Assembly: GCA_902799705.1 (NCBI GenBank)
Contig: CADCBP010000002.1
Location: 28,181-92,180, forward strand
Length of the DNA stretch: 64,000 nt
Source of the DNA: an uncultured Bacteroidales bacterium
GTDB taxonomy: Bacteria > Bacteroidota > Bacteroidia > Bacteroidales > Paludibacteraceae
Reading direction: 5' to 3'
The position numbers were made by a program, and so were the translations under genes. Positions 3,840 to 23,458 of the stretch are shown in pieces. Within the stretch, counting starts at the first letter, position 1. Every line of letters starts with the position of its first letter. A model generated the notes under the pieces. It saw nothing but the letters and a program-made list of their open reading frames with translations, did not search any database and was not told where the DNA came from.

Positions 3840-4157
3840 ATGAATATCTTTTTAGTCGTATTATTAGTGCTCGCGGGCGTCGCGTTATTATTAATGGAGA
3901 TGTTCCTTTTGCCGGGTTTCGGTATTGCGGGTGTAAGCGGTTTTCTCGCACTGATAGGTGCGGTAGTAGTTGCATGGATCTGGATCGGTCATGTGGCGGG
4001 ATTGATTACCTTGGGTGCCTGCGTGCTTTTGACCGCCCTCGCTGTATGGGGATTCGTGCGTAGTAATGCGCTGGACAAGATGGCGCTGGATGCAAAAATA
4101 GACAGTCATGTCGAATTAGCGGACAATAAATTAAAAAAAGATAAAAAGGAGGATTAG
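3840..4157 (+). CDS. NfeD-like small membrane protein
   Basis: [40 protein letters not shown]..., three hydrophobic helices, and a stop 2 nt before floA. The pairing is typical of NfeD-flotillin operons. The start was trimmed from the 3813 ORF. Confidence 0.6.
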
Positions 4158-7678: not shown

Positions 7679-7704
7679 ATAGTAAATGATCAAATCGTAA
7701 ATAG
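7667..7704. repeat. tandem 7-8 nt repeat with TAAAT core (5 units)
   Basis: ttaaatga ttaaatag taaatga tcaaatcg taaatag. It spans the recJ stop (7676-7678) and ends 6 nt before the tdk ATG. Confidence 0.75.
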
Positions 7705-7709
7705 TTTTT

Positions 7710-8303
7710 ATGTTTTCAGAACGAGACACCAAAGGACCGGTTTTACGCCGCGGCTCCATTGAAGTAGTATGCGGTTCCATGTTCAGCGGCAAGACCGAAG
7801 AACTGATCCGCCGTATGAAACGCGCGAAGTTCGCCAAGTTACGCGTAGAGATTTTCAAGCCCGCCATTGATGTGCGTTACAGCGAAGAGGATGTGGTCAG
7901 TCATGACCGTAATGTCATTCAATCGACCCCCGTGGACTCCAGTCAGAGTATTCTGCTCCTCGCCAATGATATCGATGTAGTGGGTATTGACGAGGCGCAG
8001 TTCTTCGATATGGGTATTGTGGACGTGTGCAAGCAGTTGGCGGAACGCGGGATTCGTGTCATCTGTGCGGGTCTGGATATGGATTTCAAGGGGATTCCTT
8101 TTGGTCCGATGCCTGCTTTGATGGCGATAGCTGAAGATGTATATAAGACGCATGCTATCTGTGTTCATTGCGGCGACCTGGCATACGTGAGTCACCGTCT
8201 GGTAGCGTCAGAGAAACGCGTTTTACTCGGTGAAACCGACAGTTATGAACCTCTCTGCCGTGCTTGCTACAACAAAGCCATCGCTGCCGAAGAAGCCCAG
8301 TGA
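7710..8303 (+). CDS. tdk: thymidine kinase
   Basis: 197 aa. P-loop [21 protein letters not shown], and C-terminal Zn cysteines CVHCG...CRAC. Confidence 0.93.
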
Positions 8304-8307
8304 CCAA

Positions 8308-10335
8308 ATGGTAAATGACAGCATGGTACATTACATTGATGTCATATTACCTTTAGCCATCCGAGATTGTTATACGTATAGCATCCCGGATGGTTTGTCT
8401 ATGCCTGCTCCGGGCACGCGTGTGCTGGTGCCGCTGATGCGTAAACAGGTGCGGGGGATCGTGTTACGCGAGCATACGGAGGAGGTCTCATCGGACTTTG
8501 CGGCGAAGATCAAGCCTATTTTCTCTGTGAGCGAGACAGCGCCGGCGGTGTCTGCCGAGCAGTTGGCTTTATGGCAATGGATGAGCAGTTATTATATGTG
8601 TACGTTGGGCGAAGTGATGGCTGCGGCTTTGCCTTCCGGTTTGGATAATCGTCTGCTCAATCCGCCCAAGCGCCGCCGCACGCATATAGCGCCGTACGGC
8701 GGGCCTGTCGAGCCGATGCATCCTCTTACGCCTGCGCAAGCGAAAAGTGTCGATGAAATCGGGCAATTATGGTCCTCCGGCAAGCAGATTGTATTGTTGC
8801 ACGGCGTGACATCCAGCGGCAAGACGGATATGTATATCCATCTTATCCGGGCGCAGTTGGAGGCGGGTAAGAATGTATTGTATTTAGTGCCGGAGATTGC
8901 CCTGACGACCCAACTGACCTCCCGTCTGCAACATATCTTCGGGGACCGGCTGACGGTTTATCACAGCCGTTTCACGGACGCGGAAAGGGAGGAGTTGTAT
9001 CTGGCATCTGCGCGTCAAGAGCCGCATGTGGTGATCGGTGCGCGCAGCGCAGTGTTTCTGCCGATACCGAATATAGGCCTGGTGATTGTGGATGAAGAGC
9101 ATGAGCCCAGTTACAAGCAGGCAGAGCCGGCTCCGCGTTATCATGCGCGTGCTGCGGCTATTCTCCTGGGGCAGATCCACAAGGCGAAGGTGCTGTTGGG
9201 GACCGCCACTCCTTCGGTGGAGTCGTATTATCTGGCGCAGAAAGGCGTGTACGGACTGGTGACGCTTACCGAGCGCTACGGGGGTGTTGAACTGCCGGAA
9301 ATCCGTCTTGTTGATCTGAAGCGACAATACGAGCGCAAGGAGATGTACGGTCATTTCAGCGACCCGCTGGTGGCGCGTATCCGCGAGACTTTGGCGGAGC
9401 ACAAGCAAGTCATTCTGTTTCAGAACCGCCGTGGTTATGCGCCTCAGTTGCAGTGTGTGTCCTGCGGTCAGCCGCCGCGTTGTGTGCAATGCGACGTGCC
9501 GATGACGTTGCATCTGCGTGCGAAGGAGTTACGTTGCCATTACTGCGGGTATCATGCGCCTATTCCGCCTGTCTGTCCGCAGTGCGGCGGAGAACTGAAG
9601 TCTGTCGGTTTTGGCACGGAGCGTATAGAGGACGAGATACAGGCGCTCTTTCCGGAGGCGCGGGTACTGCGCATGGACTTGGATTCGACCCGCAGCAAGA
9701 CGGCGTATCAGGATATCATCAATGCTTTTTCACGTCACGAATGTGATATCCTGGTGGGTACGCAGATGGTCACCAAGGGTTTGCATTTCGATGATGTGCG
9801 GTTAGTGGCGGTGCTGAATGCGGACCCGTTGTTCAACCAGCCTGATTTCCGTGCCTACGAGCGTGCCTTCCAGATGCTTGAACAGGTAGCAGGGCGGGCA
9901 GGCAGAAAGGGCACCAAAGGCGAAGTATGGATTCAGACTTTCGATACGAAGAACGCCGTGTTAGAGATGGTATGTAACCATGACTATGAGGCCTTATACC
10001 GGCAGCAGACAGCGGAGCGTGAGATGTTCCATTATCCTCCATTTCATCGGATAATTCGTATTCAGATGCGTGATCATAATGCGGCGCGAGTACAGGCAGT
10101 GGCAATGCAGCTTCAGGCGCATCTGAAGCAAGTCTTCGGAGCGCGTATATCGTCTGTTATCATACCGCCTGTCGAGCGTGTCCAGGCCTATACGATACGC
10201 GAGTTGAATCTGCGTATAGAGCAGGGTGCCAATATAGGTGAGGCGAAAAGACGGTTGAAGGAGTCGATAGACTATATTCTGTCGAATTCATCGAATAAAA
10301 ATGTGAAACTAATTATAGATTGTGATCCGATATGA
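8308..10335 (+). CDS. priA: primosomal protein N' (replication restart helicase PriA)
   Basis: Walker A GVTSSGKTDMY, DEXH box VIVDEEHE, and a Cys-rich Zn-binding insert CVSCG..CVQCD..CHYCG..CPQCG. The start was moved to the ATG at 8308 because the 8230 GTG ORF overlaps tdk. Confidence 0.9.
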   Translation: MVNDSMVHYIDVILPLAIRDCYTYSIPDGLSMPAPGTRVLVPLMRKQVRGIVLREHTEEVSSDFAAKIKPIFSVSETAPAVSAEQLALWQWMSSYYMCTLGEVMAAALPSGLDNRLLNPPKRRRTHIAPYGGPVEPMHPLTPAQAKSVDEIGQLWSSGKQIVLLHGVTSSGKTDMYIHLIRAQLEAGKNVLYLVPEIALTTQLTSRLQHIFGDRLTVYHSRFTDAEREELYLASARQEPHVVIGARSAVFLPIPNIGLVIVDEEHEPSYKQAEPAPRYHARAAAILLGQIHKAKVLLGTATPSVESYYLAQKGVYGLVTLTERYGGVELPEIRLVDLKRQYERKEMYGHFSDPLVARIRETLAEHKQVILFQNRRGYAPQLQCVSCGQPPRCVQCDVPMTLHLRAKELRCHYCGYHAPIPPVCPQCGGELKSVGFGTERIEDEIQALFPEARVLRMDLDSTRSKTAYQDIINAFSRHECDILVGTQMVTKGLHFDDVRLVAVLNADPLFNQPDFRAYERAFQMLEQVAGRAGRKGTKGEVWIQTFDTKNAVLEMVCNHDYEALYRQQTAEREMFHYPPFHRIIRIQMRDHNAARVQAVAMQLQAHLKQVFGARISSVIIPPVERVQAYTIRELNLRIEQGANIGEAKRRLKESIDYILSNSSNKNVKLIIDCDPI

Positions 10336-11279
10336 TAGAAGAAAAGAAACGCCGCGTGGCTTATATCAACGAGATGATAGAGAGCAATCATGCAGCAGAG
10401 TTGGTAAAAGAAGGTGAGGATTATCATTCCGAGCAACTCACGAGTATTGCCAAAGAGATATGCGCCCGTCCCGAAGTGCGCGTAGTACTGATAGCCGGTC
10501 CTTCGTCAAGTGGCAAAACGAGCACCAGTCACCGTCTGTGTCTGGAGTTGTTGGCTCAAGGCAAACAGCCGGTAGCGTTATCGTTGGACAACTGGTACGT
10601 AGATGGTACACTGACACCGCTTAAGGCGGACGGGACGAAGGACTATGAATCGGTGTATGCGATTGATCTCAAGCAGTTGGAGTCTGATCTGAAGGCATTG
10701 ATAGCCGGTAAGGAGATTGCATTGCCGACTTTCAATTTCGCGGAGGAGAGACGCGAGTATATGGGAGATACGTTGCAGTTGGAGCGTGACGGTATATTGG
10801 TGATGGAAGGTATCCATGCGCTTAATCCTATTCTCACGGAGCATATTGATGCGTCGAGTAAGTTCAAGGTCTATGCGGCGCCGATGAGTTCGATCTCGCT
10901 GGACGGCGAGCGTTGGGTGCCGACGTACGTGAACAGGTTGTTGCGGAGAATGAGCCGCGACCTACGTACGCGCGGCAAGTCGCCGCTTATGACGCTATCC
11001 GTATGGCCGTCGGTGGTGGAGGGGGAGGCGCAATGGATAGAGCCGTTCAAGAAAGAGGCGGATGCCCTCTTCGATACCTCGATGACATACGAAATGTCGG
11101 CCTTGCGTATGACGGTAGAGACGGCTTTGCAGACAGTCCCTGCGAGTGTCGAAGAATATGAGACAGCGAAGTTATTGCTTTTCTATCTGAATTTCTTCGA
11201 ACCTCTGCCTTCTTCCTTTATTCCGCGCACGTCTATTTTGCGCGAATTCATCGGTGGAAGTCAGTTCAACGTGGGATAG
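10332..11279 (+). CDS. uridine kinase/phosphoribulokinase-family nucleoside kinase
   Basis: 315 aa. P-loop IAGPSSSGKTSTS and a DNWY...EGIHALNP layout typical of the Udk-like family. There is an ATGA overlap with the priA stop. Confidence 0.7.
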   Translation: MIEEKKRRVAYINEMIESNHAAELVKEGEDYHSEQLTSIAKEICARPEVRVVLIAGPSSSGKTSTSHRLCLELLAQGKQPVALSLDNWYVDGTLTPLKADGTKDYESVYAIDLKQLESDLKALIAGKEIALPTFNFAEERREYMGDTLQLERDGILVMEGIHALNPILTEHIDASSKFKVYAAPMSSISLDGERWVPTYVNRLLRRMSRDLRTRGKSPLMTLSVWPSVVEGEAQWIEPFKKEADALFDTSMTYEMSALRMTVETALQTVPASVEEYETAKLLLFYLNFFEPLPSSFIPRTSILREFIGGSQFNVG

Positions 11280-11748
11280 AGTGTTATTGCCCTTCGGGCG
11301 TGTATATTTGATAGAAAAAAACATATAAAACACGCTGACGCGCAAAAACATATAAAAAATATTGTATTAAATCAAAAACGCGGCGGTACGACCTTTCGGT
11401 CTAATGTTTATCGTCTATTAGTCGCTCGTGAGCAAGCTCCCAGCGCCTAATACCCGCTAATCATCACGTACAACTAAAAGTTGTCCGTCCGCCTTACAAA
11501 AATACGGGCTTTGCCCTTACAAAAAATCGTTTCGCTACGCTTCACTTTCAAAAATCCATTCGGCGCGTAGGGACATTGACGAGAGAGAGAATGAGGAAAT
11601 CAAAAATGTCCAAAAATCCATGCGGGACAAAGCCTTCAAAAGCTATAAAACTAAATAAAGCATTGCTGCCGAAGGTAAAAACATACAAAAACAATTTTTC
11701 AGTTGTCACAGCTACTGACAGTATATACAGTAGTATGGTCCGGGAATA

Positions 11749-13203
11749 ATGCATCGTGGTAAAATATACATAGTGCTAATAGCCTGTTTGGCAATGATAT
11801 CTTGTTCACCAAAGGCATTGCGGGAAGCGGAAGAAGTGGTGGCGCAGGCGGACAGTCTGCGTGCGGCGGGACAGATGTACGGCATTGATGCCGGCGACAG
11901 CGCAACCCTCGCGCAAGCCTATGAGACATTAGGCTACCTTTCACTTTTCAATTTTCATTTTTCACCTTCCTACGCCCACGCTTGCTATCATTACGGCCGT
12001 TTGTTGCGCGAGAAGGACAATCCCGTAGAGGCGGTGCAATGTTTTATTGATGCTTCGCACACTCGTACGCACGATTATCATATTCTCGGGCGCGTATATA
12101 GTAATATGGGCTCTATCTGCCATTTGGCAGGAGAATTTCCATTGTCTTACGACATGTACAAGAAATCTGCCGATATGTTCCTGCATAATGGGGATAGTAC
12201 GGCGTATTTTTATGCACTCAATGATATGGCATTTGAGCTGGCGGAAAATAGGGAATTCAAATTGGCATTATGTTTATTGGATAGTATAAAATTGAATTGC
12301 ACATCCTCCGCTGTTATTGCTAAAACAAATGAGACAAGAATCATATTATTTAAGCATACTCATCAGTACGATTCTATATTATATTATTTTGATTCTGTGC
12401 CTTCCTATATAAATAATGAGCCTCTGGTCTTAATTTCCAAGGCTCAAGCGTTTTGCTATCTCCAACAATATGATTCAGCAACCTGTTATGCTACTAGAAC
12501 GCTTCAGGCATCAAATGATTTATATGACCGTAATAATGCATTTTATATTTTAATTCATTGTGATAGTATACATAATGGGAATAGAGTATATAGTTTAAAT
12601 GCCGATCGATCGGACGTACAGAAGTTATTAGAAATTCGTCAAGGCAAATTGTCTCAAGCCGTTCAACTATTAGAACAAGATTTGCATCGCAAGCCGAATT
12701 TAGGGTGGTTGTATGCCGTATGTGCAACGCTTATTGTTGTCGGACTCGTTGTGTTCCTATACGTGTACAGAAAACGTCGCCAACGTTCGCTGCTCTCGCA
12801 ACAAGTCGAAGACTTAACCATTCAAAATAAAGAGGCGGAAGAGCGACAAGCAAAGCAATACCATGAACGCCTTCGTCAGATCCAAGAGAATTGCGAGGTA
12901 CTCGCATGTTCGGACAATGTGATGGATTCTATCCAATGGAAAAAATATGAAAACTTTTGCGAATTCATAAATGCTCACTTCTTCTTACTGGCAGATAAAC
13001 TTAAAGCTACCGGTTGTCTCAATGAAAAAGAAATACGCCTTTGCGTGCTCGTTTTGATCGGATCTTTATCTGATAAGCAGATGGCAAACATTCTATATTA
13101 TTCTTATAAATCCATTCGAAGCACGAAGCGAACTCTCGCGATAAAATTAGGAACCACCAGTGCAAATTTACGCTCGTTTTTGATGAAAAAAGCGGCAAAA
13201 TAA
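11749..13203 (+). CDS. membrane-anchored one-component regulator: lipoprotein signal, TPR-like sensor region, one TM, coiled coil, C-terminal LuxR-type HTH
   Basis: 484 aa. Lipobox LIACLAMISCS, TPR-like helices, TM LGWLYAVCATLIVVGLVVFLYVY, charged coiled coil, and a C-terminus LNEKEIRLCVLVLIGSLSDKQMANILYYSYKSIRSTKRTLAIKLG that matches the LuxR/GerE HTH pattern. Confidence 0.6.
   Translation: MHRGKIYIVLIACLAMISCSPKALREAEEVVAQADSLRAAGQMYGIDAGDSATLAQAYETLGYLSLFNFHFSPSYAHACYHYGRLLREKDNPVEAVQCFIDASHTRTHDYHILGRVYSNMGSICHLAGEFPLSYDMYKKSADMFLHNGDSTAYFYALNDMAFELAENREFKLALCLLDSIKLNCTSSAVIAKTNETRIILFKHTHQYDSILYYFDSVPSYINNEPLVLISKAQAFCYLQQYDSATCYATRTLQASNDLYDRNNAFYILIHCDSIHNGNRVYSLNADRSDVQKLLEIRQGKLSQAVQLLEQDLHRKPNLGWLYAVCATLIVVGLVVFLYVYRKRRQRSLLSQQVEDLTIQNKEAEERQAKQYHERLRQIQENCEVLACSDNVMDSIQWKKYENFCEFINAHFFLLADKLKATGCLNEKEIRLCVLVLIGSLSDKQMANILYYSYKSIRSTKRTLAIKLGTTSANLRSFLMKKAAK
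11940..11967. repeat. tandem heptamer repeat (TTCAnnT x4) inside the regulator CDS
   Basis: ttcactt ttcaatt ttcattt ttcacct read directly. It encodes LFNFHFSP in frame. Confidence 0.8.
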
Positions 13204-13327
13204 TATAACAGGAAGAGGAGATAAATCAAAAAAACTACATCGACATTCCACTAAAATCCTGTAAATCAGCAGTTTACACAAACACACAAAACTACACTCT
13301 TTTCTTGTAGAGGTGTAAAAAAAGCAG

Positions 13328-13335
13328 TAATTTTG
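13328..13335 (+). promoter_or_regulatory. -7 box TAATTTTG upstream of the secreted-protein operon
   Basis: cagTAATTTTGcgg lies about 80 nt upstream of the ATG at 13417. Confidence 0.5.
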
Positions 13336-13416
13336 CGGCGTCAAACAACAAAACGTTTGGCGTTGCTTCGTTTTTTATTGTAACACCATAATATAACCTA
13401 ATTAAAATTCAATCTT

Positions 13417-13812
13417 ATGAAAACAAAATTTTTTACTCTTGTATTGTCAGCACTCTTTTTGATGCCATGCGCACTTCGCGCAGAAGAAGTAGTTATCCAG
13501 TTGATGGAAGTAGTAACGATGAGTCCTATTCCGGGCGATGATCCATTGGATGGACCAGAACAATCAGGTAATAATCCTACGCGCCCAAATGATTTCCGCG
13601 CAACTGTTGACGGGCATTTCTTGCGTGTCACTAAACAAAATGCGAATATCACGTCTGCGCAGGTAGCCGTAGTGAACGCATCCAACGGAGGTTTGGTATT
13701 GAATCAAGTCATGACAGAATCCATGGAAGAGATCATTTCCAACAACGGCGTGTATGTACTGCATATCGAAACCGAAGGCGGTGCCATCGTCGGACAATTT
13801 ATTGTACAATAA
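13417..13812 (+). CDS. small secreted protein, DUF3244-like, with a T9SS-CTD-like beta-sandwich tail
   Basis: 131 aa. Signal peptide MKTKFFTLVLSALFLMPCALRA. The pattern ATVDGHFLRVT...AQVAVVNASNGGLV...NGVYVLHIETEGGAIVGQFIVQ matches my memory of the DUF3244/CTD pattern. No alignment was run. Confidence 0.5.
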   Translation: MKTKFFTLVLSALFLMPCALRAEEVVIQLMEVVTMSPIPGDDPLDGPEQSGNNPTRPNDFRATVDGHFLRVTKQNANITSAQVAVVNASNGGLVLNQVMTESMEEIISNNGVYVLHIETEGGAIVGQFIVQ

Positions 13813-13831
13813 TTTTAGTTAGTACATAACT

Positions 13832-15715
13832 ATGAAGAAGTCATTTTTGCTATATGCGTTTATACTTATAAATAGCTTGTCTTTGTGGGCTTATGACATC
13901 ACTACATCAGCATTCATTTATGGGCGCACAACATCCACGGCTACAAGTAATTACCCTTCTGGCTCTATTCCTATGGGTGTTCGACGTATTAACTTTAAAA
14001 ATCTCACTAATAATGTTGCACCAGAATTGGAAACAGCTCTAAGCGCTGCCTCTGGGATTTTTACGGATGCGATGTTGCGTGAAAGGATCGATATTGTTCC
14101 GTTGGATGTTACAATTTTGATGGACGATATCGGTCCAGATGAGAATGTTATATGCAAAGTGGAGATCAATTATGCAGATACTGTAGGTTTCCATCCTAAT
14201 TACCCAAGTTTTAGTTGGTATGAGACTTCATATGATGAGCGCGTCCTTTTACCAATGGCTATGATTAATCAAAGTCAACGCAAAAGTGGTGGTACGGCTA
14301 TGCGCATTACGCTCAGACCCAACGTTACATATCATTACGGGATAGATCCAGCTCAGGAAGGGGAATATGACGCGATTACTATTTTATTACGTGCATTAGC
14401 AATGGGTTGCGGAATACAGAGCACATTTAACCCTGAGACAAAGACAGTAGGATATGTTTCGGGCGAAAAGGTCTATGTTAATGCTTTTGATACGCAAATT
14501 TTTAATGAGGATCATGTATCTCTTGTCAGCGTTGCGGATGGAGATGTTGCTGCAGATGCTTTTTTTTCGGAGAAAGGCATCTATGCATATGGATATTTTG
14601 GCCCAGCAGACGAGAGGCAAGTGTACTTGCAAAACGAAAAAGCAATTGCTCCACTTTTCCCTTATTCTGAACTGACAGCTAATACAATTGTTCCAGATAA
14701 TTATACAGAAAATGAAATACAAGAAGACTTCTATGATTTATTAGAATCCTACCTGCCGCCTGAAACATCTATTCGCGTTGTTACTCCATATACGATGGCG
14801 TTACTCAGGCAATTAGGCTGGATGTATAATATTCCCGTAGGGCCCGGAGATGGATTCGCAGATTTATATAATTGCCAATTAATTTGCAATGATTCAACAT
14901 TATCACCAAACACATCGTATTCTATCGGTTTAAATCGCAGTTCAGTGGTTCTGGAAAATGCAGGTTTGCACTGCGAGTTACAAAGCATAGATAGTGTATA
15001 CGATATCGGTTCTTTTAGCAGTGGTTATATTGATGGATATACGTTTACATATAGTACCATTCCTGCCAATGTGCAATGGCGTCGTAACCCTATATCTAAA
15101 AATATCATAGGCCAAATTAGAGGGACTGCGAGTATGTTTGTCGATACATATAAATCACAAACAAAACTTTGTGACATTGAGATTCCTTATAGGCCGAACC
15201 ACCCGTTAGTCCAAAGGAATGAGAGCGCTTCGCAAGGTAACGTATTAATGAATCTATCGGTATTCGCCAATGGTAGCAACACTTATACGATGACGTATGT
15301 AGGCTGGGCTGATTCTATATCTCACACCGAAACTATTACGAAAGATGCTATTGACACAATTTTGATTTTACCTGCCACACAACTCTATGACTTTACCATA
15401 TATGGCACAAATTCGCAAGGTAATAGCGACTCATGCCATTTTACAATGGGTGCATCCGTTATACCTCCCTTATATTTGAATGTAAGCGTTCACGGAAGTA
15501 TCATGCAATATTACTTGGATTCCAATCATTCACAAAATATACCGTGTGTAAACATTAGTTCCGTGGTAGTAACTAACCCTCAAGGGTTGATATATATTAC
15601 ATCTAATGCTTCCCCAGGGGATGAAATAAATATTTCTTCTTTATCGCGTGGTTACTATATTATATCTGTAGTAGCTAATGGATCAACATATAGCAAAATA
15701 TTTTATAAGAGATAA
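13832..15715 (+). CDS. large secreted protein of unknown function with a T9SS C-terminal sorting-domain-like tail
   Basis: 627 aa. Signal peptide MKKSFLLYAFILINSLSLWA. C-terminus INISSLSRGYYIISVVANGSTYSKIFYKR. No HExxH or other catalytic motif was recognised. Confidence 0.55.
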   Translation: MKKSFLLYAFILINSLSLWAYDITTSAFIYGRTTSTATSNYPSGSIPMGVRRINFKNLTNNVAPELETALSAASGIFTDAMLRERIDIVPLDVTILMDDIGPDENVICKVEINYADTVGFHPNYPSFSWYETSYDERVLLPMAMINQSQRKSGGTAMRITLRPNVTYHYGIDPAQEGEYDAITILLRALAMGCGIQSTFNPETKTVGYVSGEKVYVNAFDTQIFNEDHVSLVSVADGDVAADAFFSEKGIYAYGYFGPADERQVYLQNEKAIAPLFPYSELTANTIVPDNYTENEIQEDFYDLLESYLPPETSIRVVTPYTMALLRQLGWMYNIPVGPGDGFADLYNCQLICNDSTLSPNTSYSIGLNRSSVVLENAGLHCELQSIDSVYDIGSFSSGYIDGYTFTYSTIPANVQWRRNPISKNIIGQIRGTASMFVDTYKSQTKLCDIEIPYRPNHPLVQRNESASQGNVLMNLSVFANGSNTYTMTYVGWADSISHTETITKDAIDTILILPATQLYDFTIYGTNSQGNSDSCHFTMGASVIPPLYLNVSVHGSIMQYYLDSNHSQNIPCVNISSVVVTNPQGLIYITSNASPGDEINISSLSRGYYIISVVANGSTYSKIFYKR

Positions 15716-15717
15716 CT

Positions 15718-16182
15718 ATGAAAAAAATATTCATCGCGATATTGTCGTGGGTGTGTTCGAGCACTCTTTGTTTCTCAATAGATGTGTCTCCTTGCGAAAC
15801 CTACCCTGACTTTTACCCAAGATGCATAGTTCGTGGGAATTGTATGAAGTACTATTTATTTGAAGGGAAAGACAAATTAGAAATAGTTGCCGATAGTGTA
15901 TGGATAAACAATCAGGAAGGGGAGACAATCATGATTGTTCGCGAGCGACAAGGAGAACAAGTTGATATTTCTTCTTTATATAGGGGTTATTATATATGCA
16001 ATTTTCAAATAGGAGATTGTATTGGTGCAGATATGTTTTATAATCGCAAAAATCCCGAGGAAGATATACTCACTCCGGATAAAGAACTCATTCCCGCATC
16101 GAAACTCCTCCATGACGGACAAGTGTTAATTCTCAAAGAAAACAAAAAATATACTATAGACGGCAAAGTAATAGAATTATGA
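15718..16182 (+). CDS. small Cys-rich secreted protein with a CTD-like segment
   Basis: 154 aa. Signal peptide MKKIFIAILSWVCSSTLC. It has VDISSLYRGYYICNFQIG (compare the preceding protein) and the tail KLLHDGQVLILKENKKYTIDGKVIEL. The start lies 2 nt after the previous stop. Confidence 0.5.
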   Translation: MKKIFIAILSWVCSSTLCFSIDVSPCETYPDFYPRCIVRGNCMKYYLFEGKDKLEIVADSVWINNQEGETIMIVRERQGEQVDISSLYRGYYICNFQIGDCIGADMFYNRKNPEEDILTPDKELIPASKLLHDGQVLILKENKKYTIDGKVIEL

Positions 16183-16207
16183 AGTCTTTTCACAAGTTCT
16201 CTTGTAG

Positions 16208-16846
16208 ATGTGGGAGGATTATTGCCTATGTTATTATAAATTTAACAGATGTACAATGAAACTTATAAATAAAACCAATCTCTGTATCATGTCGATGGAA
16301 TTAATATTCATATTGGCATTTATCAAAAGTATTGATATTCCAGTTTATTTTGGATCGGACTGGGAGTTTATCGGATGGAGCAACTTATTTCTGCACCATC
16401 CCGGAAATTTTGTGGCGCTCCTGTGTATAATGGGCTTGATATGGAGCCAGTGCGTGAGTTGGGCGTTGCGGCATAAGTTAAAAGGATCACCAGATACACT
16501 GCCTATAAAAATCAACAATATTAAAAACAAGGACACAGAATACATGTCTTTGCTATTTACTATTTTAACAATTGTCAGTTTTGACTTCAGCAACATAAGG
16601 GATATTATTGTTTTTGTGGTTGTATTCTGTATTTATTGCGTCTTACTAAAAAGGACAGATTGGTATGCTGCCAGCCCGATATTAGCTTTAAAAGGGATTC
16701 ACCTCTACGCAGGAGAAACAAATAAGTTGCCTCAAGATACCATATTTCTATCATATGGAGAGATTCCCATAGAAGAAGGGGAAATAATACGTCCTTTTCA
16801 AAAAATCTCCAAAACTGTCTATTGGCTTTATCCTAATGCGCAATAG
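16208..16846 (+). CDS. multi-pass membrane protein, KwaA-like (candidate Kiwa component A)
   Basis: 212 aa, or 196 aa from the alternative ATG at 16256. There are 3-4 hydrophobic helices (ELIFILAFI, NFVALLCIMGLIWSQCVSW, MSLLFTILTIVSF, IIVFVVVFCIYCVLL). It ends 22 nt before the DUF4868-like gene. The call rests on architecture and context only. Confidence 0.45.
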   Translation: MWEDYCLCYYKFNRCTMKLINKTNLCIMSMELIFILAFIKSIDIPVYFGSDWEFIGWSNLFLHHPGNFVALLCIMGLIWSQCVSWALRHKLKGSPDTLPIKINNIKNKDTEYMSLLFTILTIVSFDFSNIRDIIVFVVVFCIYCVLLKRTDWYAASPILALKGIHLYAGETNKLPQDTIFLSYGEIPIEEGEIIRPFQKISKTVYWLYPNAQ

Positions 16847-16868
16847 TAATGCATAAAATGACATAGTT

Positions 16869-17882
16869 ATGACAAAAGAAGAATTACAAGAAAAGCTGGA
16901 TGGGCTAATCGCCCAAGAAGGAAGCAGTATGAATTTGTATTTCATCCTGCACCAACGAGATGAATATATCTTGAAAAAAGCAAATGTTAAGAACGAAGCA
17001 CTTACTCCGATTAGGAATGTACTACGTGACAATCTAGTGCAACTTCGACAGATGATGGATGAGGACACCTTTGCAGTGTTGAATCTATCCGGAGCTGAAG
17101 ACAGAAAAAATGTAATCTATCAGTATGACATGGAAGATGAGCTTCGTCCGATTTCACTAATGAAAGAAGTAGACGAGCATTTGTTTGATGGCAACTACTT
17201 CACATCAGATAATAACCGCATCTTCGACTCCGCCACTGATACATTCGACGAGGTAGATGCTTGGATCGCAAGTTATGGAGTAGAGGGGAATCATCTTATC
17301 ATATATCGCAAAACTTTTTCAGTTAATCTTTTGAAAAAGGAACGAAATGTCTTCGTTTTTAAAGGCACAGAGCAAATCGATATCCTAAAGGATGATATTT
17401 TTAGGATTGATGGTAAAATAGATTTCTTCCTGTTGGATAACACAGCTTTGATTTACAATATATCCATCTTGGAGAAATTCAATGACTTTAAAGATATTGT
17501 GCAACGCTCTGCCCGTAATTCATTGCAACAGATTGCTGCAGCGGATTTAGTTAGTGATATCGCAAAATTACAAGAGAGGGCGCAAGACGACATCTCATTT
17601 GCAAGAAAGTTGATCAAAGTGACAACGAATGCCCTAATTCTTAATGTGGTCAGCAAGGAAACAATCGTTCAATTTGCGAGGACGCACGCTTATCTGTCAA
17701 AAAGATTGAAGGTATCTGCGGATAATAAATTTGAATTAGATAAAAAGACTTCACAAAATCTATTTGTCCAATTATTGGATGATGCCTTTCTTCATTCCGA
17801 ATTGTCAAGCAATGATTATCTTTCACCGGGGAAAGACAGATTATCTTCTGAAGAAGCGCCCGCCAATGCAGACAATTTATAG
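16869..17882 (+). CDS. DUF4868-like cytoplasmic protein, KwaB-like (candidate Kiwa component B)
   Basis: 337 aa, soluble. The size, the position after a ~200-aa multi-TM protein, and segments such as DDISFARKLIKVT and KKTSQNLFVQLLDDAFLHSEL fit my recollection of KwaB/DUF4868. This was not verified by alignment. Confidence 0.5.
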   Translation: MTKEELQEKLDGLIAQEGSSMNLYFILHQRDEYILKKANVKNEALTPIRNVLRDNLVQLRQMMDEDTFAVLNLSGAEDRKNVIYQYDMEDELRPISLMKEVDEHLFDGNYFTSDNNRIFDSATDTFDEVDAWIASYGVEGNHLIIYRKTFSVNLLKKERNVFVFKGTEQIDILKDDIFRIDGKIDFFLLDNTALIYNISILEKFNDFKDIVQRSARNSLQQIAAADLVSDIAKLQERAQDDISFARKLIKVTTNALILNVVSKETIVQFARTHAYLSKRLKVSADNKFELDKKTSQNLFVQLLDDAFLHSELSSNDYLSPGKDRLSSEEAPANADNL

Positions 17883-17910
17883 TACAATAACCTTTTAAAT
17901 TTTTACTGTT

Positions 17911-20340
17911 ATGAAAAAGTTATCACTTGCCCTACTATGTATCTTTGCTTTGTCGTTAAGTGCATATGCACAAGACTACTATTGGTACAAAGGAAAACAA
18001 ATACCATTACAACGAGGGAATCAACGTTATATTATATATGAAGGTAATGACGCGAGAGGCTTAGATTCCCTACGCATTATCGAGACTGGAGATGTTTCTA
18101 CATCAAAGAATCAAAACTTAAAATGGGCCGTCGTTGATCAGGAATCAGAAATTATAGCCCCAAATGTTATTTATCAAACACCATCTTTTTATGGTGCAGG
18201 AACAAAACATGACATATTCGTGACCCACAGGTTTAGCGTAAAACTTAAAAGCGATAAGGATTTTGCAATGTTGCAACAATATGCAAACAAATACAATGCA
18301 GAGATAGAGAAAGACAAGTATCTTCCTTTATGGTACATCCTGACCTGTGATTTCAATGCTCCATACAATGCTTTAGATCTTGCGAATATATTTTACGAAA
18401 CAGGTTTATTTGCTATTTCAGAACCAGAGTTTACACATGTTGCTCTATTAGATTGTGTAAACGATTATTATTTCGCTAATCAATGGAATCTGAAAAACAC
18501 CGGACAATATGGGGCTTCATATAGTGGAATTGATATTAATTATTGCGATGCACATGCCATTACCACAGGAGATTCCTCAGTAATCATCGGTGTGTATGAT
18601 TTAGGTGTAGATTTGACTCATCCGGATATTAATCTCTATTCTTTTAGTTATGATGCAAATACCCATTCTTCTCCGAGTACAATTTATACGAGTGCTAACG
18701 GAAACAATTACCATGGTACAGCGTGTGCCGGTATTATTGGGGCAAAGACAAATAATACGATTGGAGATGCCGGCATAGCTCCAGATTGTCCTATCATGTC
18801 AATTAGTTTCTATAACACTACAACTACGAATATTAGGGATGCTTTTATTGTAGCCGCAAATAATGGTTGTTCTGTTATCAGCAACTCTTGGAGTCTTTCT
18901 TCTCCTTTTGCCGAGGTGGATGCTGGAATATCTTATGCTCTGTCGCAAGGAAGAAACGGGAAAGGCTGCGTAGTGGTTTTTTCCGCGGGGAATAACGATA
19001 GAGATAGTGTTAATTATCCTGCTAATTCAAATGATTCGATTCTTGTTGTAGGCGCCATGTCTCCTTGTGGAGAAAGATGCAATCCTAATTCTTGTGATAG
19101 CGAAAACTGGGGCAGCAACTATGGCAACAAGTTAGATGTTGTGGCTCCCGGTGTCAAGATTCGAACTACCGACCTTGTCGGTGAAGCGGGATACACACCA
19201 AGCGACTACATGGCAGCATTTAATGGAACCTCATCGGCGTGCCCACATGCTGCTGGTATAGCCGGACTAATTCTTTCTGTTAATCCATTTTTAACGCAAA
19301 AAGAAGTGGTTGATATTATAGAATCAACAGCACAAAAGGTAGGATCTTATTCATATACTTCACAATCCGGGCGTCTTAATGGAACATGGAACTATCAAAT
19401 GGGATATGGTCTTGTAGATGCCTATGCAGCAGTTCTCGCCGCCAAAAACCGACTGCCTTCCATTGGAGGATTAGATGTTCTTTGTAGTACAGCCATGTAT
19501 GGTATAGATAATATGCCGACTACCGCCACTGTGAATTGGTCATACGAAACGGATATTATCCCGCACCTCTTCTTCCCCGTAATAAACCTATCGAATACAA
19601 CATCAACATATATAACCGTGCAACGAGGAAGTACGTGTTTACCTGCACATTTCAATCCATCATGTTACTATAATGGAACCGTTACCCTCAAGGCAACAAT
19701 TACAGATTCAGGAATAACAAGACTTTGTACAAAAGACATCATTCTGCATGAGGATATTACACCAACTATACCGGCTTCTCAACGAAGAAAAATAAGTTTA
19801 GATGAGACTCGCACATTTTGTATTGATAATTGTACAGATGTTCCCACTAACAAGTTAAAATGGGTAATAACATTGCCTTCCGCAACAAGTTCGACTACCT
19901 ACTATGGACGTTGTTGGAGTATTACGACAGGATTTTTTATTGTTCAACAGGGGACAATGAATATAAAGCTGTATAACTTGGAAAACTGCGACCCTACATT
20001 ATATACTGACTACAACATCACGATAAGCTATCTTATTCCCGATCCGTTGCTGTCATTCGCAAATCCTGTTACAACCGGCACAGTTGAAATAAACGTGACA
20101 GACAGGAATTATGCACAACGAGACGGAGATGCAGAAGTAGAGAAACGCGAAGATATTGATTACACCTTGGAACTCTGGTCTGAGAATTCCAGGACTGTCC
20201 GTACTGTCAACGGTACGCTTAAAGGAGAGAAGGATGTCGTTACAATGGATGTAAGCAATCTCCCGAACGGTATCTATTTCCTCACCATGAAAGTTAATAA
20301 TGAGATATTAACTACAGAAAAAATGATAATTATTCACTAA
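17911..20340 (+). CDS. subtilisin-like serine protease (peptidase S8) with a T9SS C-terminal sorting domain
   Basis: 809 aa with a signal peptide. Catalytic triad contexts VIIGVYDLGVDLTHPDI (Asp), HGTACAGIIGA (His) and GTSSACPHAAGIAGLILS (Ser). CTD tail VSNLPNGIYFLTMKVNNEILTTEKMIIIH. Confidence 0.88.
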   Translation: MKKLSLALLCIFALSLSAYAQDYYWYKGKQIPLQRGNQRYIIYEGNDARGLDSLRIIETGDVSTSKNQNLKWAVVDQESEIIAPNVIYQTPSFYGAGTKHDIFVTHRFSVKLKSDKDFAMLQQYANKYNAEIEKDKYLPLWYILTCDFNAPYNALDLANIFYETGLFAISEPEFTHVALLDCVNDYYFANQWNLKNTGQYGASYSGIDINYCDAHAITTGDSSVIIGVYDLGVDLTHPDINLYSFSYDANTHSSPSTIYTSANGNNYHGTACAGIIGAKTNNTIGDAGIAPDCPIMSISFYNTTTTNIRDAFIVAANNGCSVISNSWSLSSPFAEVDAGISYALSQGRNGKGCVVVFSAGNNDRDSVNYPANSNDSILVVGAMSPCGERCNPNSCDSENWGSNYGNKLDVVAPGVKIRTTDLVGEAGYTPSDYMAAFNGTSSACPHAAGIAGLILSVNPFLTQKEVVDIIESTAQKVGSYSYTSQSGRLNGTWNYQMGYGLVDAYAAVLAAKNRLPSIGGLDVLCSTAMYGIDNMPTTATVNWSYETDIIPHLFFPVINLSNTTSTYITVQRGSTCLPAHFNPSCYYNGTVTLKATITDSGITRLCTKDIILHEDITPTIPASQRRKISLDETRTFCIDNCTDVPTNKLKWVITLPSATSSTTYYGRCWSITTGFFIVQQGTMNIKLYNLENCDPTLYTDYNITISYLIPDPLLSFANPVTTGTVEINVTDRNYAQRDGDAEVEKREDIDYTLELWSENSRTVRTVNGTLKGEKDVVTMDVSNLPNGIYFLTMKVNNEILTTEKMIIIH

Positions 20341-20377
20341 TTTCCTTCATAAATTTGCATATTTTAAAAATTCATAT

Positions 20378-20385
20378 TAATTTTG
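20378..20385 (+). promoter_or_regulatory. -7 box TAATTTTG just upstream of the OMP gene
   Basis: atTAATTTTGcagg lies 9 nt before the ATG at 20394, which implies a very short leader. Confidence 0.4.
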
Positions 20386-20393
20386 CAGGCGAA

Positions 20394-21287
20394 ATGGTAA
20401 GTATAAAGAAGTACATATTAATCTCTCTTGTGGCTATATTGCCGGCGCTGCCGCTTATGGCGCAGACTTCTACGTTCGCGGTCGGCGTTCGAGGGGGCGG
20501 GATGATGTGGCTTCCTGAAGTTGTTTCTCAAGGTAGGAATGCTGCAAGTAGAATCGGAGGCGAAGGTATCGTAGAGTTCCGATACACGTTTTATGGTCAT
20601 GTGGGACTCAAAACCGGACTTGGAATAACTGCCGGTATAGATGCCGGATACAGTACTTCCGGATTCTACGGAACACATGATGTGTTATACTTGTGGGATG
20701 GGGTAATACATGGTTTATATCGCGACGCGGTAGATTACACACAAACGGAACAGTATATGCGTACGGATATTTCGTTGATGATGGCACTTCATGCCGGGGG
20801 CTTTGTGCTGAATGTAGGTCCCAGGTTCATGATGCCTTTCTTCGGAACGGAAAACACCAGTGCAAAATCGAATAATGATGCAGTATATGTTGAGCCATAT
20901 TTAAATGAGACAAGTCCGGCAGTACTGCCGTTATGTAATCTGTTGATGGGCATAGAAGCCGGTTGGGAGTTTCCTCTTAGTGCAGGTGCCTTGGGCCTTC
21001 AGGCATACGCAGACATAGGAGTTTGGAATAATCAAAAATATATTCCGCATGTTGAACCTCATGACGGGTATCAGCTGCCTGATGCTTTGGTAATTACGGA
21101 AGATGGGACTGTCGGCATCCCCAGAAGTACCATACGTAGTGCTAATGGTGTATTCCGGGAGCGGCGGATCGTGGATTTTGGTATCCGATTATATTATTCT
21201 TTCGGCTCATATTCTTTTGTGGGCAGAAAACGTCCCAGCCCGCCATGGGACACACGACTGCACCATAACAGAATGGGAAGTCGATAA
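20394..21287 (+). CDS. outer-membrane beta-barrel protein (porin-family-like)
   Basis: Signal peptide MVSIKKYILISLVAILPALPLMAQ, followed by alternating Gly/aromatic beta-strand pattern (FAVGVRGGG, GLGITAGIDAGYS, FGIRLYYSF). The start was trimmed from the 20355 TTG ORF. Confidence 0.55.
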   Translation: MVSIKKYILISLVAILPALPLMAQTSTFAVGVRGGGMMWLPEVVSQGRNAASRIGGEGIVEFRYTFYGHVGLKTGLGITAGIDAGYSTSGFYGTHDVLYLWDGVIHGLYRDAVDYTQTEQYMRTDISLMMALHAGGFVLNVGPRFMMPFFGTENTSAKSNNDAVYVEPYLNETSPAVLPLCNLLMGIEAGWEFPLSAGALGLQAYADIGVWNNQKYIPHVEPHDGYQLPDALVITEDGTVGIPRSTIRSANGVFRERRIVDFGIRLYYSFGSYSFVGRKRPSPPWDTRLHHNRMGSR

Positions 21288-21324
21288 ACAGAGGTAGAAG
21301 AAACTCATAAAAATTCCGAAAAAA

Positions 21325-21357
21325 TCCCACATAAATTTGCATATGTGGGATTTTTTG
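21325..21357 (+). terminator. rho-independent terminator
   Basis: TCCCACATAaatttgcaTATGTGGGAtttttt read directly: a 9-bp stem plus a T-run. Confidence 0.8.
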
Positions 21358-21424
21358 TGTACGACACGCATAACAAAATCATAAAAAAGTTTTAAAAATA
21401 CTTGCGTATATCAACAAAAATGTA

Positions 21425-21432
21425 TATCTTTG
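21425..21432 (+). promoter_or_regulatory. -7 box TATCTTTG upstream of abiEi
   Basis: gtaTATCTTTGcagc lies 22 nt before the ATG at 21454. Confidence 0.5.
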
Positions 21433-21453
21433 CAGCGAATTTGAAACAATGTT

Positions 21454-22212
21454 ATGAATTTGTTACCAATTTTACACCAGAAACTCCTATTCACGACAGA
21501 GGATATTGCTCGGGAAATTGGAAATTCGCAAAGTGCGGCTACTATGCTTTGGCGCTACCAGCGTCAAGGCTATATTTCACAAGTGCGGCGTGGATTATAT
21601 TGTGTAAACAATATGGCAACGCAACAGCCGGAAGCCAATAAATTTCAGATAGCCTCTGCGATCACACCAACTTCTTATGTTGCCTACCATGCTGCAATGG
21701 AGTACCATGGGTTGGCCCATCAGGTGTATTATGATGTAGTGGTCGGGACCAAGCAAACATTCAAGGCATTCGAATTCGATAATTATCGCTATGCGCCACA
21801 CCGCTCAGCATGCTCGCTTGAGATAGAAACACCCATAGCAGATACGCACATTCGCGTAACAAGTGTTGAACGAACTATTCTTGATTGTATTGACCGCATC
21901 GACTTGTGTGGCGGATGGGAAGAATTGGTCAACTGCTTGCGAAGCGTAACATACCTGCGGGAAGAGCGGTTGAAATCTACCTTAGAAGCCTATAGCAAAA
22001 CGGCGCTTTACAAAAAGGTTGGCTTCCTGTTTGAGCAACTACAAGTGCCGGCTTCGCAGAATTTTATAGCCGATTGCCGCAAATACGCCAAAGATAGTGT
22101 TATGTACCTAACCTCCGATGGTACAAGCGATACCTTCTATGCTTCGTGGCGGTTATACGCACCTCACAATTTATTAACTATCAATAATCAAAATGCCGAT
22201 GAACTCGTATAA
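21454..22212 (+). CDS. abiEi: AbiEi-family type IV toxin-antitoxin antitoxin / transcriptional regulator
   Basis: 252 aa. N-terminal wHTH FTTEDIAREIGNSQSAATMLWRYQRQGYISQVRRGLY and C-terminal ERTILDCIDR..GGWEEL, typical of AbiEi_4-type antitoxins. Confidence 0.75.
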   Translation: MNLLPILHQKLLFTTEDIAREIGNSQSAATMLWRYQRQGYISQVRRGLYCVNNMATQQPEANKFQIASAITPTSYVAYHAAMEYHGLAHQVYYDVVVGTKQTFKAFEFDNYRYAPHRSACSLEIETPIADTHIRVTSVERTILDCIDRIDLCGGWEELVNCLRSVTYLREERLKSTLEAYSKTALYKKVGFLFEQLQVPASQNFIADCRKYAKDSVMYLTSDGTSDTFYASWRLYAPHNLLTINNQNADELV

Positions 22213-22315
22213 CAAAAACGACTTGTCTCAATTAGCTACACAAACTCTTTTCCTTCGCGATAATTTGGAAAAAGTGTTGCGATTAACTGACATCCGATGG
22301 CATATTGGAAAATGA
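22193..22315 (+). pseudogene. abiEii: truncated AbiEii (nucleotidyltransferase toxin) N-terminal stub, 40 codons
   Basis: The ATG overlaps the abiEi 3' end by 20 nt, as in intact abiE operons. It translates to MPMNSYNKNDLSQLATQTLFLRDNLEKVLRLTDIRWHIGK then stops. AbiEii toxins are several-fold longer, and no continuation is seen in any frame. Confidence 0.45.
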
Positions 22316-22352
22316 GATACTAATACAAAATCTACTGGTTCTACTTAGTTCA

Positions 22353-22387
22353 CCGACAGTGAGCCGACGGTCAGCCGACGGTCAAGG
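22353..22387. repeat. 11-nt-period tandem repeat (CCGACnGTnAn x3)
   Basis: ccgacagtgag ccgacggtcag ccgacggtcaagg read directly. It is 30/35 identical to 51415-51449 inside ileS by my manual alignment. Confidence 0.85.
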
Positions 22388-22443
22388 CTAAGGTAAGGCT
22401 CCTGTAAAACCAAAAAAAAGACCAAAAATCGCATAAAATATAC

Positions 22444-22469
22444 TATATTATATATTTATATATAATATA
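22444..22469. promoter_or_regulatory. perfect 12-bp inverted repeat with 2-nt spacer (candidate operator) upstream of an orphan ORF
   Basis: TATATTATATAT tt ATATATAATATA read directly, ending 20 nt upstream of the ATG at 22489. Confidence 0.4.
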
Positions 22470-22488
22470 CAATTTAACACACTTTTTT

Positions 22489-22839
22489 ATGGCAAAAATA
22501 GAAACTACATCCGCTATCAATCAGATTCATGGCAAAACAAATGGCAGAGACAGAGGCTATTTCTACATGCGTAACGGCAAACAATTTTACCGTGATCGTG
22601 ATGAAACCTATCAACAAAATCAGTCTCCGCGACAAAAATGGAACTCTGCTGCCTTCGCATACGCAAATAAAATTACGAATAAACTCTTTTCCTCTCCGGA
22701 ATCTGTAACTCAATTGAACGAAGAATACGAGGCCTCCAAACACATTGCTTCCAACGGGAAGGTGTATTCCACTCCTCGAGCATGGAAATTTAATTCTCTT
22801 CTCCACGAATATAAACTTGCTCATCCGTTCAAAGGGTAA
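22489..22839 (+). CDS. small basic hypothetical protein
   Basis: 116 aa, MAKIETTSAINQIHGKTNGRDRGYFYMRNGKQFYRDRDETYQQNQSPRQKW... It is more protein-like than the overlapping minus-strand ORF 22474-22893. No family was recognised with confidence. Confidence 0.4.
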   Translation: MAKIETTSAINQIHGKTNGRDRGYFYMRNGKQFYRDRDETYQQNQSPRQKWNSAAFAYANKITNKLFSSPESVTQLNEEYEASKHIASNGKVYSTPRAWKFNSLLHEYKLAHPFKG

Positions 22840-22909
22840 TGGACGAATTAAATCGGCATAATTTTTGTAGGGGAAGAAGGTAAGTATAAACACTCAAAAA
22901 CAGGAAGGT

Positions 22910-23458
22910 ATGAAAAAAGTATTATGGTTGATGGTATGCGCGGGGATGATGATGGTATGCGTTGTAATGATGGTGTCATGCGGTGCATCGCGGTTGAGTC
23001 CCGAAGAGCGGGCGGCACGGAAAGCTGCTATTGAAGAAAATGCGAAGAAAGCCATTGCGGATCAGAACTTCCGCATCAACCTGACGATGGTCCGTCCTCT
23101 GTTTGGTCAGAACCTGACGGTTTCCGGTTACTGGATCAAAGTGGACACGACGCATGTACAATGCTACCTGCCTAAGATCTATCCGGACTATAACCCGCAT
23201 TTTGATGCGCCTGCTCCAGGAGAGAAATACAATGACATGCGTCTGGAGTTCACATCACCGATAGACGAATATCTATACACCTTCAATCCGGAGACCAATG
23301 TCGGGCTCATTACGTTTAAGACACTGTATGGCGGCGACGAGTACCGTTTCTACATCCAGATCGAGAACGTCGATGAGGCACGTGTGCGTATCCTTCCGGG
23401 TGACCGGAACGAGGTGTCCTGCGAGGGGACGATTACGCCTATCGGCGAGAGGTGGTAA
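22910..23458 (+). CDS. lipoprotein, DUF4251-like
   Basis: 182 aa. Lipobox MMVSCGAS, followed by NFRINLTMVRPLFGQNLTVSGYWIKVDTTHVQCYLP. The two-lobed layout is recalled for DUF4251 and was not aligned. Confidence 0.5.
   Translation: MKKVLWLMVCAGMMMVCVVMMVSCGASRLSPEERAARKAAIEENAKKAIADQNFRINLTMVRPLFGQNLTVSGYWIKVDTTHVQCYLPKIYPDYNPHFDAPAPGEKYNDMRLEFTSPIDEYLYTFNPETNVGLITFKTLYGGDEYRFYIQIENVDEARVRILPGDRNEVSCEGTITPIGERW

Follow-up and report, generated by a model that had tools for sequence, protein, structure and literature searches.

What is a pair of adjacent genes, one for a membrane protein and one for a soluble protein, doing in the middle of an array of genes for apparent cargo of the type IX secretion system (T9SS)? 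The question is raised by a 64,000-nucleotide stretch of DNA (here called the window) from an uncultured cattle-rumen Bacteroidales bacterium, the sequence of which is found in bovine gut and rumen metagenomes and in two metatranscriptomes. An original prediction, made from the letters of the window alone, had likened the pair to Kiwa, an anti-phage system reportedly described by Doron et al. in 2018. We conclude that positions 16256–17882, which are chromosomal, very probably encode a complete two-gene Kiwa system (kwaA and kwaB), whose activity against phages and conjugation would be that established in Escherichia coli. Protein profiles, membrane topology and the co-occurrence of the two genes in other genomes were all tested, and the Kiwa interpretation came through each of them.

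Identity of the Kiwa proteins

The pair had been described as a protein of ~200 aa followed 22 nt later by a soluble protein of 337 aa, and both open reading frames (ORFs) and the gap between them were confirmed. The first ORF occupies 16208–16846 on the forward strand (212 aa from the first ATG), the second 16869–17882 on the same strand (337 aa), and the spacer, read from the sequence, is 22 nt (16847–16868).

The second ORF, kwaB, encodes the soluble effector, and its suspected membership of DUF4868 was borne out by every profile collection searched: Pfam PF16162 (DUF4868; 7.4e-29; 101.5 bits, gathering cutoff 26.3), the NCBIfam equivalog NF041623 (250.9 bits, cutoff 200), and PADLOC model PDLC00233 (3.6e-70), the last aligning residues 1–328 with profile positions 1–317 of 320. 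The Protein Data Bank (PDB) holds solved Kiwa structures under 9mrg, 9mrr, 9mrx, 9mtn, 9nyu, and 9o0i; searched by sequence, KwaB matched 9o0i/9mrx (2e-22, residues 1–327 against 1–315), and only Kiwa chains really matched. Two motifs that the original prediction assigned to KwaB, DDISFARKLIKVT and KKTSQNLFVQLLDDAFLHSEL, pair with their counterparts in the solved E. coli KwaB and lie on invariant columns of the family alignment. Hydropathy analysis found no transmembrane (TM) segment in KwaB, and neither KwaA nor KwaB has the C-terminal domain (CTD) of T9SS cargo. In an AlphaFold2 (AF2) model of KwaB (predicted local distance difference test [pLDDT] 76.5), beta and alpha elements alternate to about residue 195 and helices occupy 198–308; when this model was compared with the PDB using Foldseek, only KwaB chains were significant (E = 7e-17), with the next match at E > 0.5. 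KwaB is thereby modeled, over its full length, as a Rossmann-like alpha/beta N-terminal domain joined to a helical DUF4868 C-terminal domain.

KwaA, the membrane component (196 aa, 16256–16846, forward strand), matched the NCBIfam equivalog NF041622 (108.3 bits, cutoff 100) and 12 PADLOC KwaA models (best 7e-28), while the sequence search of the PDB returned 9mrg_A/9mrx (1.7e-11), the solved Kiwa chains again being the only real matches. The local Pfam search gave no match for KwaA because the copy used lacked the KwaA family PF28043, which is newer; an identical 196-aa protein in public collections bears a precomputed PF28043 "KwaA" tag. A membrane protein of three to four TM helices with KwaA-like topology had been foreseen, and Kyte-Doolittle hydropathy gives four TM segments, with a short acidic loop after TM1, a K/R-rich loop after TM2 (6 K/R), and a 65-aa soluble tail, in an N-in arrangement that follows the positive-inside pattern. 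The AF2 model, built with 29 homologs, has helices at residues 2–25, 49–74, 93–106, and 114–133, a strand at 84–91 in the post-TM2 loop, and five C-terminal strands; Foldseek matched it to KwaA chains only (E = 1e-7, template modeling score [TM-score] 0.68 to 9mrx_A), with the next match at E = 0.65. The protein is predicted to combine four TM helices with a six-stranded cytoplasmic beta-barrel contributed by the post-TM2 loop and the C-terminus, a layout that agrees with the four TM helices and six-stranded barrel of solved KwaA (PMC11785009).

The start of kwaA had been placed at 16208, and this coordinate needs correction. In every KwaA alignment, whether to profiles or to PDB chains, the first residue is M17 of the 212-aa ORF, gene callers on identical public contigs give a KwaA of 196 or 185 aa, KwaA homologs are 183–197 aa long, and DNA homology to related metagenome-assembled genomes (MAGs) starts only at 16252–16256. 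For these reasons, translation almost certainly starts from the ATG at 16256 (196 aa), and the in-frame upstream extension of 16 codons (16208–16255, forward strand), which falls within the 73-nt gap between kwaA and the preceding gene g154, is probably not translated.

Comparison with Escherichia coli Kiwa

The mechanism and structures of E. coli Kiwa have been reported by Zhang, Todeschini et al. (PMC11785009), and the reference Kiwa hosts are E. coli O55:H7 RM12579 and ECOR strains. The rumen pair resembles that system in the order kwaA then kwaB, in homology over the full length of both proteins, in a KwaA of four TM helices with a barrel formed from intracellular loop 1 (ICL1) and the C-terminus, in a KwaB of Rossmann-like N-terminal domain plus DUF4868, and in being sited in a variable or horizontally acquired region; the proteins measure 196 and 337 aa here versus 195 and 315 aa in E. 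coli. Unlike E. coli Kiwa, it is set among T9SS cargo genes and apparently lacks its own promoter, and unlike the Kiwa systems studied experimentally, it resides in a Bacteroidales host, whereas the main carriers in the published survey are Bacillales and Enterobacterales. The KwaA/KwaB phylogeny has been found to comprise three clusters (PMC11785009).

Individual residues were compared through a pairwise HMMER alignment to E. coli KwaB. Of the six DNA-contact residues, three are identical (E. coli R167, D169, and R233, corresponding to R179, D181, and R246 here), and two others become lysine in this alignment at 28% identity (R142 to K156 and N134 to K148). At the KwaA-KwaB interface, KwaA K75 (K76 here, invariant in the family alignment) and KwaB N101 (N115 here) are kept, and the C-terminal KwaA residues Y181, F183, and K194 fall outside the pairwise alignment.

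Should the rumen proteins act as their E. coli counterparts do (PMC11785009), KwaA tetramers in the inner membrane would dock KwaB dimers into a supercomplex, and KwaA would sense the membrane distortion caused by phage attachment, DNA ejection, or conjugation. KwaB would then bind the incoming DNA non-specifically through a basic channel of its DUF4868 domain, which would stall replication forks and so block late transcription. The cell would survive, with no abortive infection, and Gam-like DNA mimics of phages could act as inhibitors (PMC11785009).

Linkage and conservation of the pair

KwaA and KwaB travel together. An identical KwaB occurs on 23 public contigs, each with KwaA 22 nt upstream, and whether KwaB identity is 100%, 73–84%, or 53%, every inspected locus has KwaA as the gene directly before KwaB, so that the co-occurrence on which the original prediction could have foundered was seen in every other locus examined; ~160 homologous cluster representatives exist. 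Kiwa pairs in rumen MAGs (RUG337, RUG11711, RUG14487, SRR873597_bin.130, and others) share 73–84% identity in KwaB and 56–78% in KwaA and have the same spacing. They mostly occupy the same slot, downstream of homologs of the genes g484 and g131 described below, but have neighbors unlike those of the window (Peptidase_C25, PKD, BspA-LRR, Peptidase_S74, and RHS proteins). DNA homology to related MAGs is limited to 16252–17853, that is, to both Kiwa genes, and the immediate neighbors there are unrelated.

The ratio of nonsynonymous to synonymous substitution rates (dN/dS) against eight homologous loci is 0.03–0.11, values that are qualitative only because dS is saturated for several pairs, and the lengths of kwaA and kwaB are conserved across nine loci; judged from these alignments, both genes appear to be under strong purifying selection. 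A search for flanking repeats that might mark insertion of the cassette yielded only short AT-rich pairs, such as 16227–16242/17874–17889 (16 nt, 81%), among 25 inverted pairs in 2.7 kb; we put these down to chance, and the island showed no integrase or transposase.

Three homologous loci deserve separate mention. At L012/L013, in a related MAG of an uncultured Bacteroidales bacterium, a single array carries two distinct Kiwa pairs (1621–3285 and 7422–9002) 5.7 kb apart, encoding 203 + 346 aa and 183/194 + 333 aa, respectively; a Peptidase_C25 gene and two small genes lie between them, and downstream come a DUF8202 gene and a large gene of RHS/SpvB toxin-like type. In locus L024, a lone 40-aa KwaB fragment (3996–4115, 82% identical) follows g484-g131 with no intact Kiwa, and is apparently a decayed Kiwa cassette. 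In locus L015 (segment 9190–12133), which has the KwaB of 53% identity, Kiwa is followed by genes for a protein of 713 aa that starts with an Mrr_cat nuclease domain and for an unknown protein of 270 aa, with AAA_14/DUF4143 and Fic genes nearby; the Mrr_cat protein and its neighbors could be a further defense module.

Transcription within a variable cargo array

Kiwa is flanked on its own strand by genes for exported proteins. Upstream of the variable part of the array lies g484 (484 aa, 11749–13203, forward strand), a conserved TPR/TM regulator-like gene with weak TPR matches, for which the translation and a five-homolog alignment indicate a signal/lipobox cysteine, TPR-like repeats, a single TM helix, and a C-terminus that is conserved and resembles a helix-turn-helix domain. 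Its conserved partner g131 (131 aa, 13417–13812, forward strand) encodes a small secreted protein that bears a type A T9SS sorting domain (TIGR04183, 23.6 bits, cutoff 23) and opens the transcribed array; the g484-g131 pair has no family assignment in Pfam or NCBIfam. There follow g627 (13832–15715, forward strand; CTD-like tail, 22.6 bits against the TIGR04183 cutoff of 23) and g154 (15718–16182, forward strand; CTD-like tail, only 15.4 bits), a cargo module whose Por_Secre_tail matches fall just short of the cutoff, and downstream of Kiwa an S8 subtilase with a probable T9SS CTD (17911–20340, forward strand; Peptidase_S8 5.9e-43, Por_Secre_tail 26.5 bits against a cutoff of 27, TIGR04183 22.0 bits), and an outer membrane protein (OMP) beta-barrel-like protein (20394–21287, forward strand), which with the subtilase forms the cargo on that side. 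The earlier description of the pair as interrupting a run of signal-peptide/CTD proteins holds: the array neighbors show N-terminal hydrophobic leaders in their translations and match CTD models, though the CTD scores lie at or just under the curated cutoffs. The subtilase was also considered as a defense component and rejected, as its PADLOC "subtilase" match (1.7e-17) covers the generic catalytic domain only; because it has a leader and a probable T9SS CTD, we class it as secreted cargo.

The middle of g154 (residues 30–110, 15805–16047) shares ~30% identity with the sorting domain at the C-terminus of g627 (15464–15712), and the two genes share a 45-nt DNA repeat (15616–15660 and 15951–15995). 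The g154 protein extends ~45 residues beyond its CTD-like segment, which is atypical for T9SS cargo.

Such a position raises the possibility that Kiwa is coupled to the array, with g484 co-regulating defense and exposed proteins that are possible phage receptors, or with KwaAB serving an envelope role. The transcriptional layout speaks for coupling. Assembled RNA and DNA contigs were compared with window positions 11000–22400, and RNA contigs cover 13386/13402 to 21326, where X7 ends. All array junctions around Kiwa are bridged: that between g154 and kwaA by X8 16012–16381, the kwaA-kwaB spacer by X7 16333–17627 and X8 16480–16891, and that between kwaB and the subtilase gene by X7 17604–17932. 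No RNA contig covers g484, and RNA depth is zero over 11000–13285, a stretch that a DNA run of the same study covers at 8–21x. Kiwa stands mid-array, with same-strand gaps of 2–73 nt and no strong internal terminator.

Because Bacteroidetes promoters differ from the sigma-70 type, promoters were sought with the Bacteroidetes -7 motif TAnnTTTG; a sigma-70 scan was uninformative (49 sites versus 40.3 ± 6.9 in shuffles). An exact -7 motif, TAATTTTG, occurs between g484 and g131 (13328–13335, forward strand), as does a GC-rich hairpin with a T-run (13335–13366, forward strand), and the RNA contigs begin 20–36 nt past the end of the latter. The array ends in a bidirectional terminator-like hairpin of 15 pairs with T-runs on both sides (21319–21356), within which the RNA coverage stops and beyond which another exact -7 motif at 21425 precedes abiEi, 4 nt ahead of an RNA contig starting at 21436. 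No exact -7 motif was found before kwaA, only the one-mismatch TAAATTTA at 16237. Since RNA contigs span the junctions and an exact motif is missing before kwaA, Kiwa is probably transcribed by read-through in a seven-gene same-strand array, 13417–21287.

The distribution of the genes points both ways. We scanned 80 loci with g484 homologs from metagenomes with local KwaA, KwaB, and g131 profiles. A g131 homolog follows g484 after 100–220 nt in nearly all loci with room for it (~60 rumen metagenome loci). Seen from Kiwa, the association is close: g484 and g131 homologs lie 0.7–6 kb upstream in six of the seven distinct Kiwa loci of this clade with enough upstream flank, including the distant L015, and in L029 and L056 Kiwa again stands among CTD cargo genes. 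Seen from g484-g131, however, it is rare, as Kiwa lies downstream in only three (L029, L056, and L060) of ~40 loci with at least 5 kb of downstream sequence, and the genes between g131 and Kiwa are different in each lineage. L006 has Kiwa with no g484 or g131 homolog within 8 kb upstream; on this locus and the three in ~40 sampled loci, an obligate partnership of g484-g131 with Kiwa was rejected. What follows Kiwa in L015 is an Mrr-like nuclease, AAA_14/DUF4143, and Fic rather than T9SS cargo, and E. coli Kiwa functions as a stand-alone pair (PMC11785009). Given also that co-transcription in compact Bacteroidales arrays is not proof of shared function, we consider a functional coupling of Kiwa to the cargo array unlikely.

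The cargo itself is interchangeable. The g627-g154 pair is present without Kiwa in L081 and L091, the subtilase and OMP-like genes directly follow g131 in the closest relative, L018, and other g484-g131 arrays carry PKD/CTD, BspA-LRR, Peptidase_S74/CTD, and Peptidase_C25 proteins. We infer that the array is a variable-cargo slot downstream of g484-g131, in which Kiwa is an occasional mobile two-gene passenger and not a functional partner.

Integrity of the system

Several observations weigh against a working Kiwa system in the window. Identity to E. coli Kiwa is only 28% for KwaB and 30% for KwaA; confidence in the KwaA model is only moderate (pLDDT 66.8), and the KwaB model fits the solved KwaB with a global TM-score of ~0.5 and a root-mean-square deviation of ~10 Å, a poor fit that we attribute to domain orientation and to the low-confidence loop 151–182, the equivalent of the flexible DE loop in E. 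coli KwaB. One DNA-contact residue is replaced by serine (K187 to S199), and most of the E. coli interface residues defined by mutagenesis differ (R21 to N, R35 to N, Y157 to Q, and P100 to D), as does Q103. For this uncultured host, no cognate phage is known. With regard to expression, the RNA evidence consists of unstranded assembled contigs of two bovine metatranscriptomes, the g154-kwaA junction is covered by one low-depth contig from one run only, the DNA control, though of the same study, is from another sample, and a weak internal promoter at the one-mismatch motif at 16237 is conceivable.

The differences at the interface would suit a Kiwa homolog that no longer defends, whether as a decaying passenger or through lost KwaA-KwaB coupling, and the degenerate AbiE nearby and the KwaB fragment of L024, an apparent case of Kiwa decay in this slot, lend this some color. 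They are not decisive, because co-evolving interfaces are expected to co-vary, and at 28–30% identity they are no argument against Kiwa membership. Moreover, both ORFs are intact and full length against the profiles, gene lengths are steady over the nine loci with low dN/dS, the identical KwaB recurs on its 23 contigs, and RNA contigs cover kwaA and kwaB; loss of function is accordingly a very improbable explanation. Two further readings, that the ORFs arose by chance or that they form a membrane-plus-soluble module which resembles Kiwa without being related to it (the latter close to the fallback of an uncharacterized module in the original prediction, which does not apply), have only the low GC content in their favor, which lengthens random ORFs, and can be dismissed given profile, PDB-sequence, and fold comparisons that are specific to Kiwa with nothing else significant and the ~160 homologous cluster representatives.

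AbiE and the genomic island

A complete Kiwa system remains the preferred reading, and the wider setting bears on whether the pair belongs to a defense island. The low-GC stretch in which it lies (~11.5–23.4 kb, 34–46% GC versus roughly 47–59% in both flanks) is bordered by chromosomal housekeeping genes, upstream by topA, floA, recJ, tdk, priA, and a PRK-family kinase gene and downstream by CNNM, smpB, iPGM, rluD-like, and PEPCK genes. At its left edge, a DNA metagenome contig (run X6) omits 264 nt at 11336–11601 and has a 7-nt filler instead, and contig L002 is also interrupted there, at 11526–11600.

An AbiE remnant had been placed 3.5 kb downstream of the pair, and AbiEi was indeed located 3.57 kb away, in a separate transcription unit beyond the array terminator. 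AbiE is a type IV toxin-antitoxin system of abortive infection, in which AbiEi is the antitoxin/regulator and AbiEii the nucleotidyltransferase toxin. The gene abiEi (252 aa, 21454–22212, forward strand) is intact and matches PADLOC AbiEi over its full length (1.1e-82). As in intact AbiE operons, the start of the second gene overlaps abiEi; unlike in a complete AbiE, abiEii (22199–22315, forward strand) is truncated to an N-terminal stub of 38 codons that aligns with positions 2–31 of the 306 in the AbiEii profile (E = 2.8e-5). Because only this 38-aa stub is left of AbiEii, we regard the AbiE system as incomplete, with its toxin gene deleted. The gap that follows (22316–22488) contains GCCGACGGTCA twice (~22362–22385) and an AT-rich low-complexity run (22434–22476), and may be a deletion scar; beyond it lies g116, a 116-aa unknown ORF (22489–22839). 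The whole of 21288–23438, comprising AbiEi, the AbiEii stub, g116, and a DUF4251 gene, is strain-variable, with homology resuming at 23439; in L002 and L003, which have the identical KwaB, the AbiE segment is replaced by ~3.9 kb with a KilA-N protein and small ORFs.

The other island genes tested against PADLOC yielded nothing beyond the generic subtilase match and, for g154, a marginal one to REase_II (E = 0.005), and g116, the OMP-like protein, and the DUF4251 protein had no PADLOC or NCBIfam assignment. The defense-island flavor attributed to this region is therefore weak, as Kiwa and a broken AbiE are the only defense genes among the island genes tested, and the T9SS setting is that of a variable-cargo array. 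About 8 kb downstream of the cargo array, 29737–31317 encodes a 526-aa protein with response-regulator receiver and PglZ domains, an architecture that we take to be that of PorX, a T9SS response regulator, and not that of the PglZ of bacteriophage exclusion (BREX) systems.

Implications

The locus is a routine member of a known and structurally solved family, which PADLOC, Pfam, and NCBIfam models would label, and it offers little that is new for defense biology as such, although its host lineage has received little study and its transcriptional setting is uncommon yet can be explained. We found no specific report of Kiwa in the rumen or in Bacteroidales; two rumen defense surveys are silent on it in their main text, and the silence is an absence of comment and not a discovery. 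A more far-reaching proposal is that g484-g131 heads a previously undescribed type of variable-cargo operon that exchanges T9SS modules and recruits Kiwa. We put this forward as speculative and rather doubtful; if it were true, the Kiwa sensor would share a promoter with strain-variable exposed proteins, and defense expression would be coupled to variation of the surface proteome.

What the window does provide is a Kiwa pair that is intact and transcribed in a rumen Bacteroidales lineage not yet cultured, one distant from the carriers behind the experimental work, which belong to the Enterobacterales and Bacillales. At 28–30% identity to E. coli, this divergent pair could help to show which interface and DNA-contact residues are general, and it furnishes an example of defense genes riding as an apparently promoter-less two-gene cassette in an accessory slot that is not otherwise devoted to defense.

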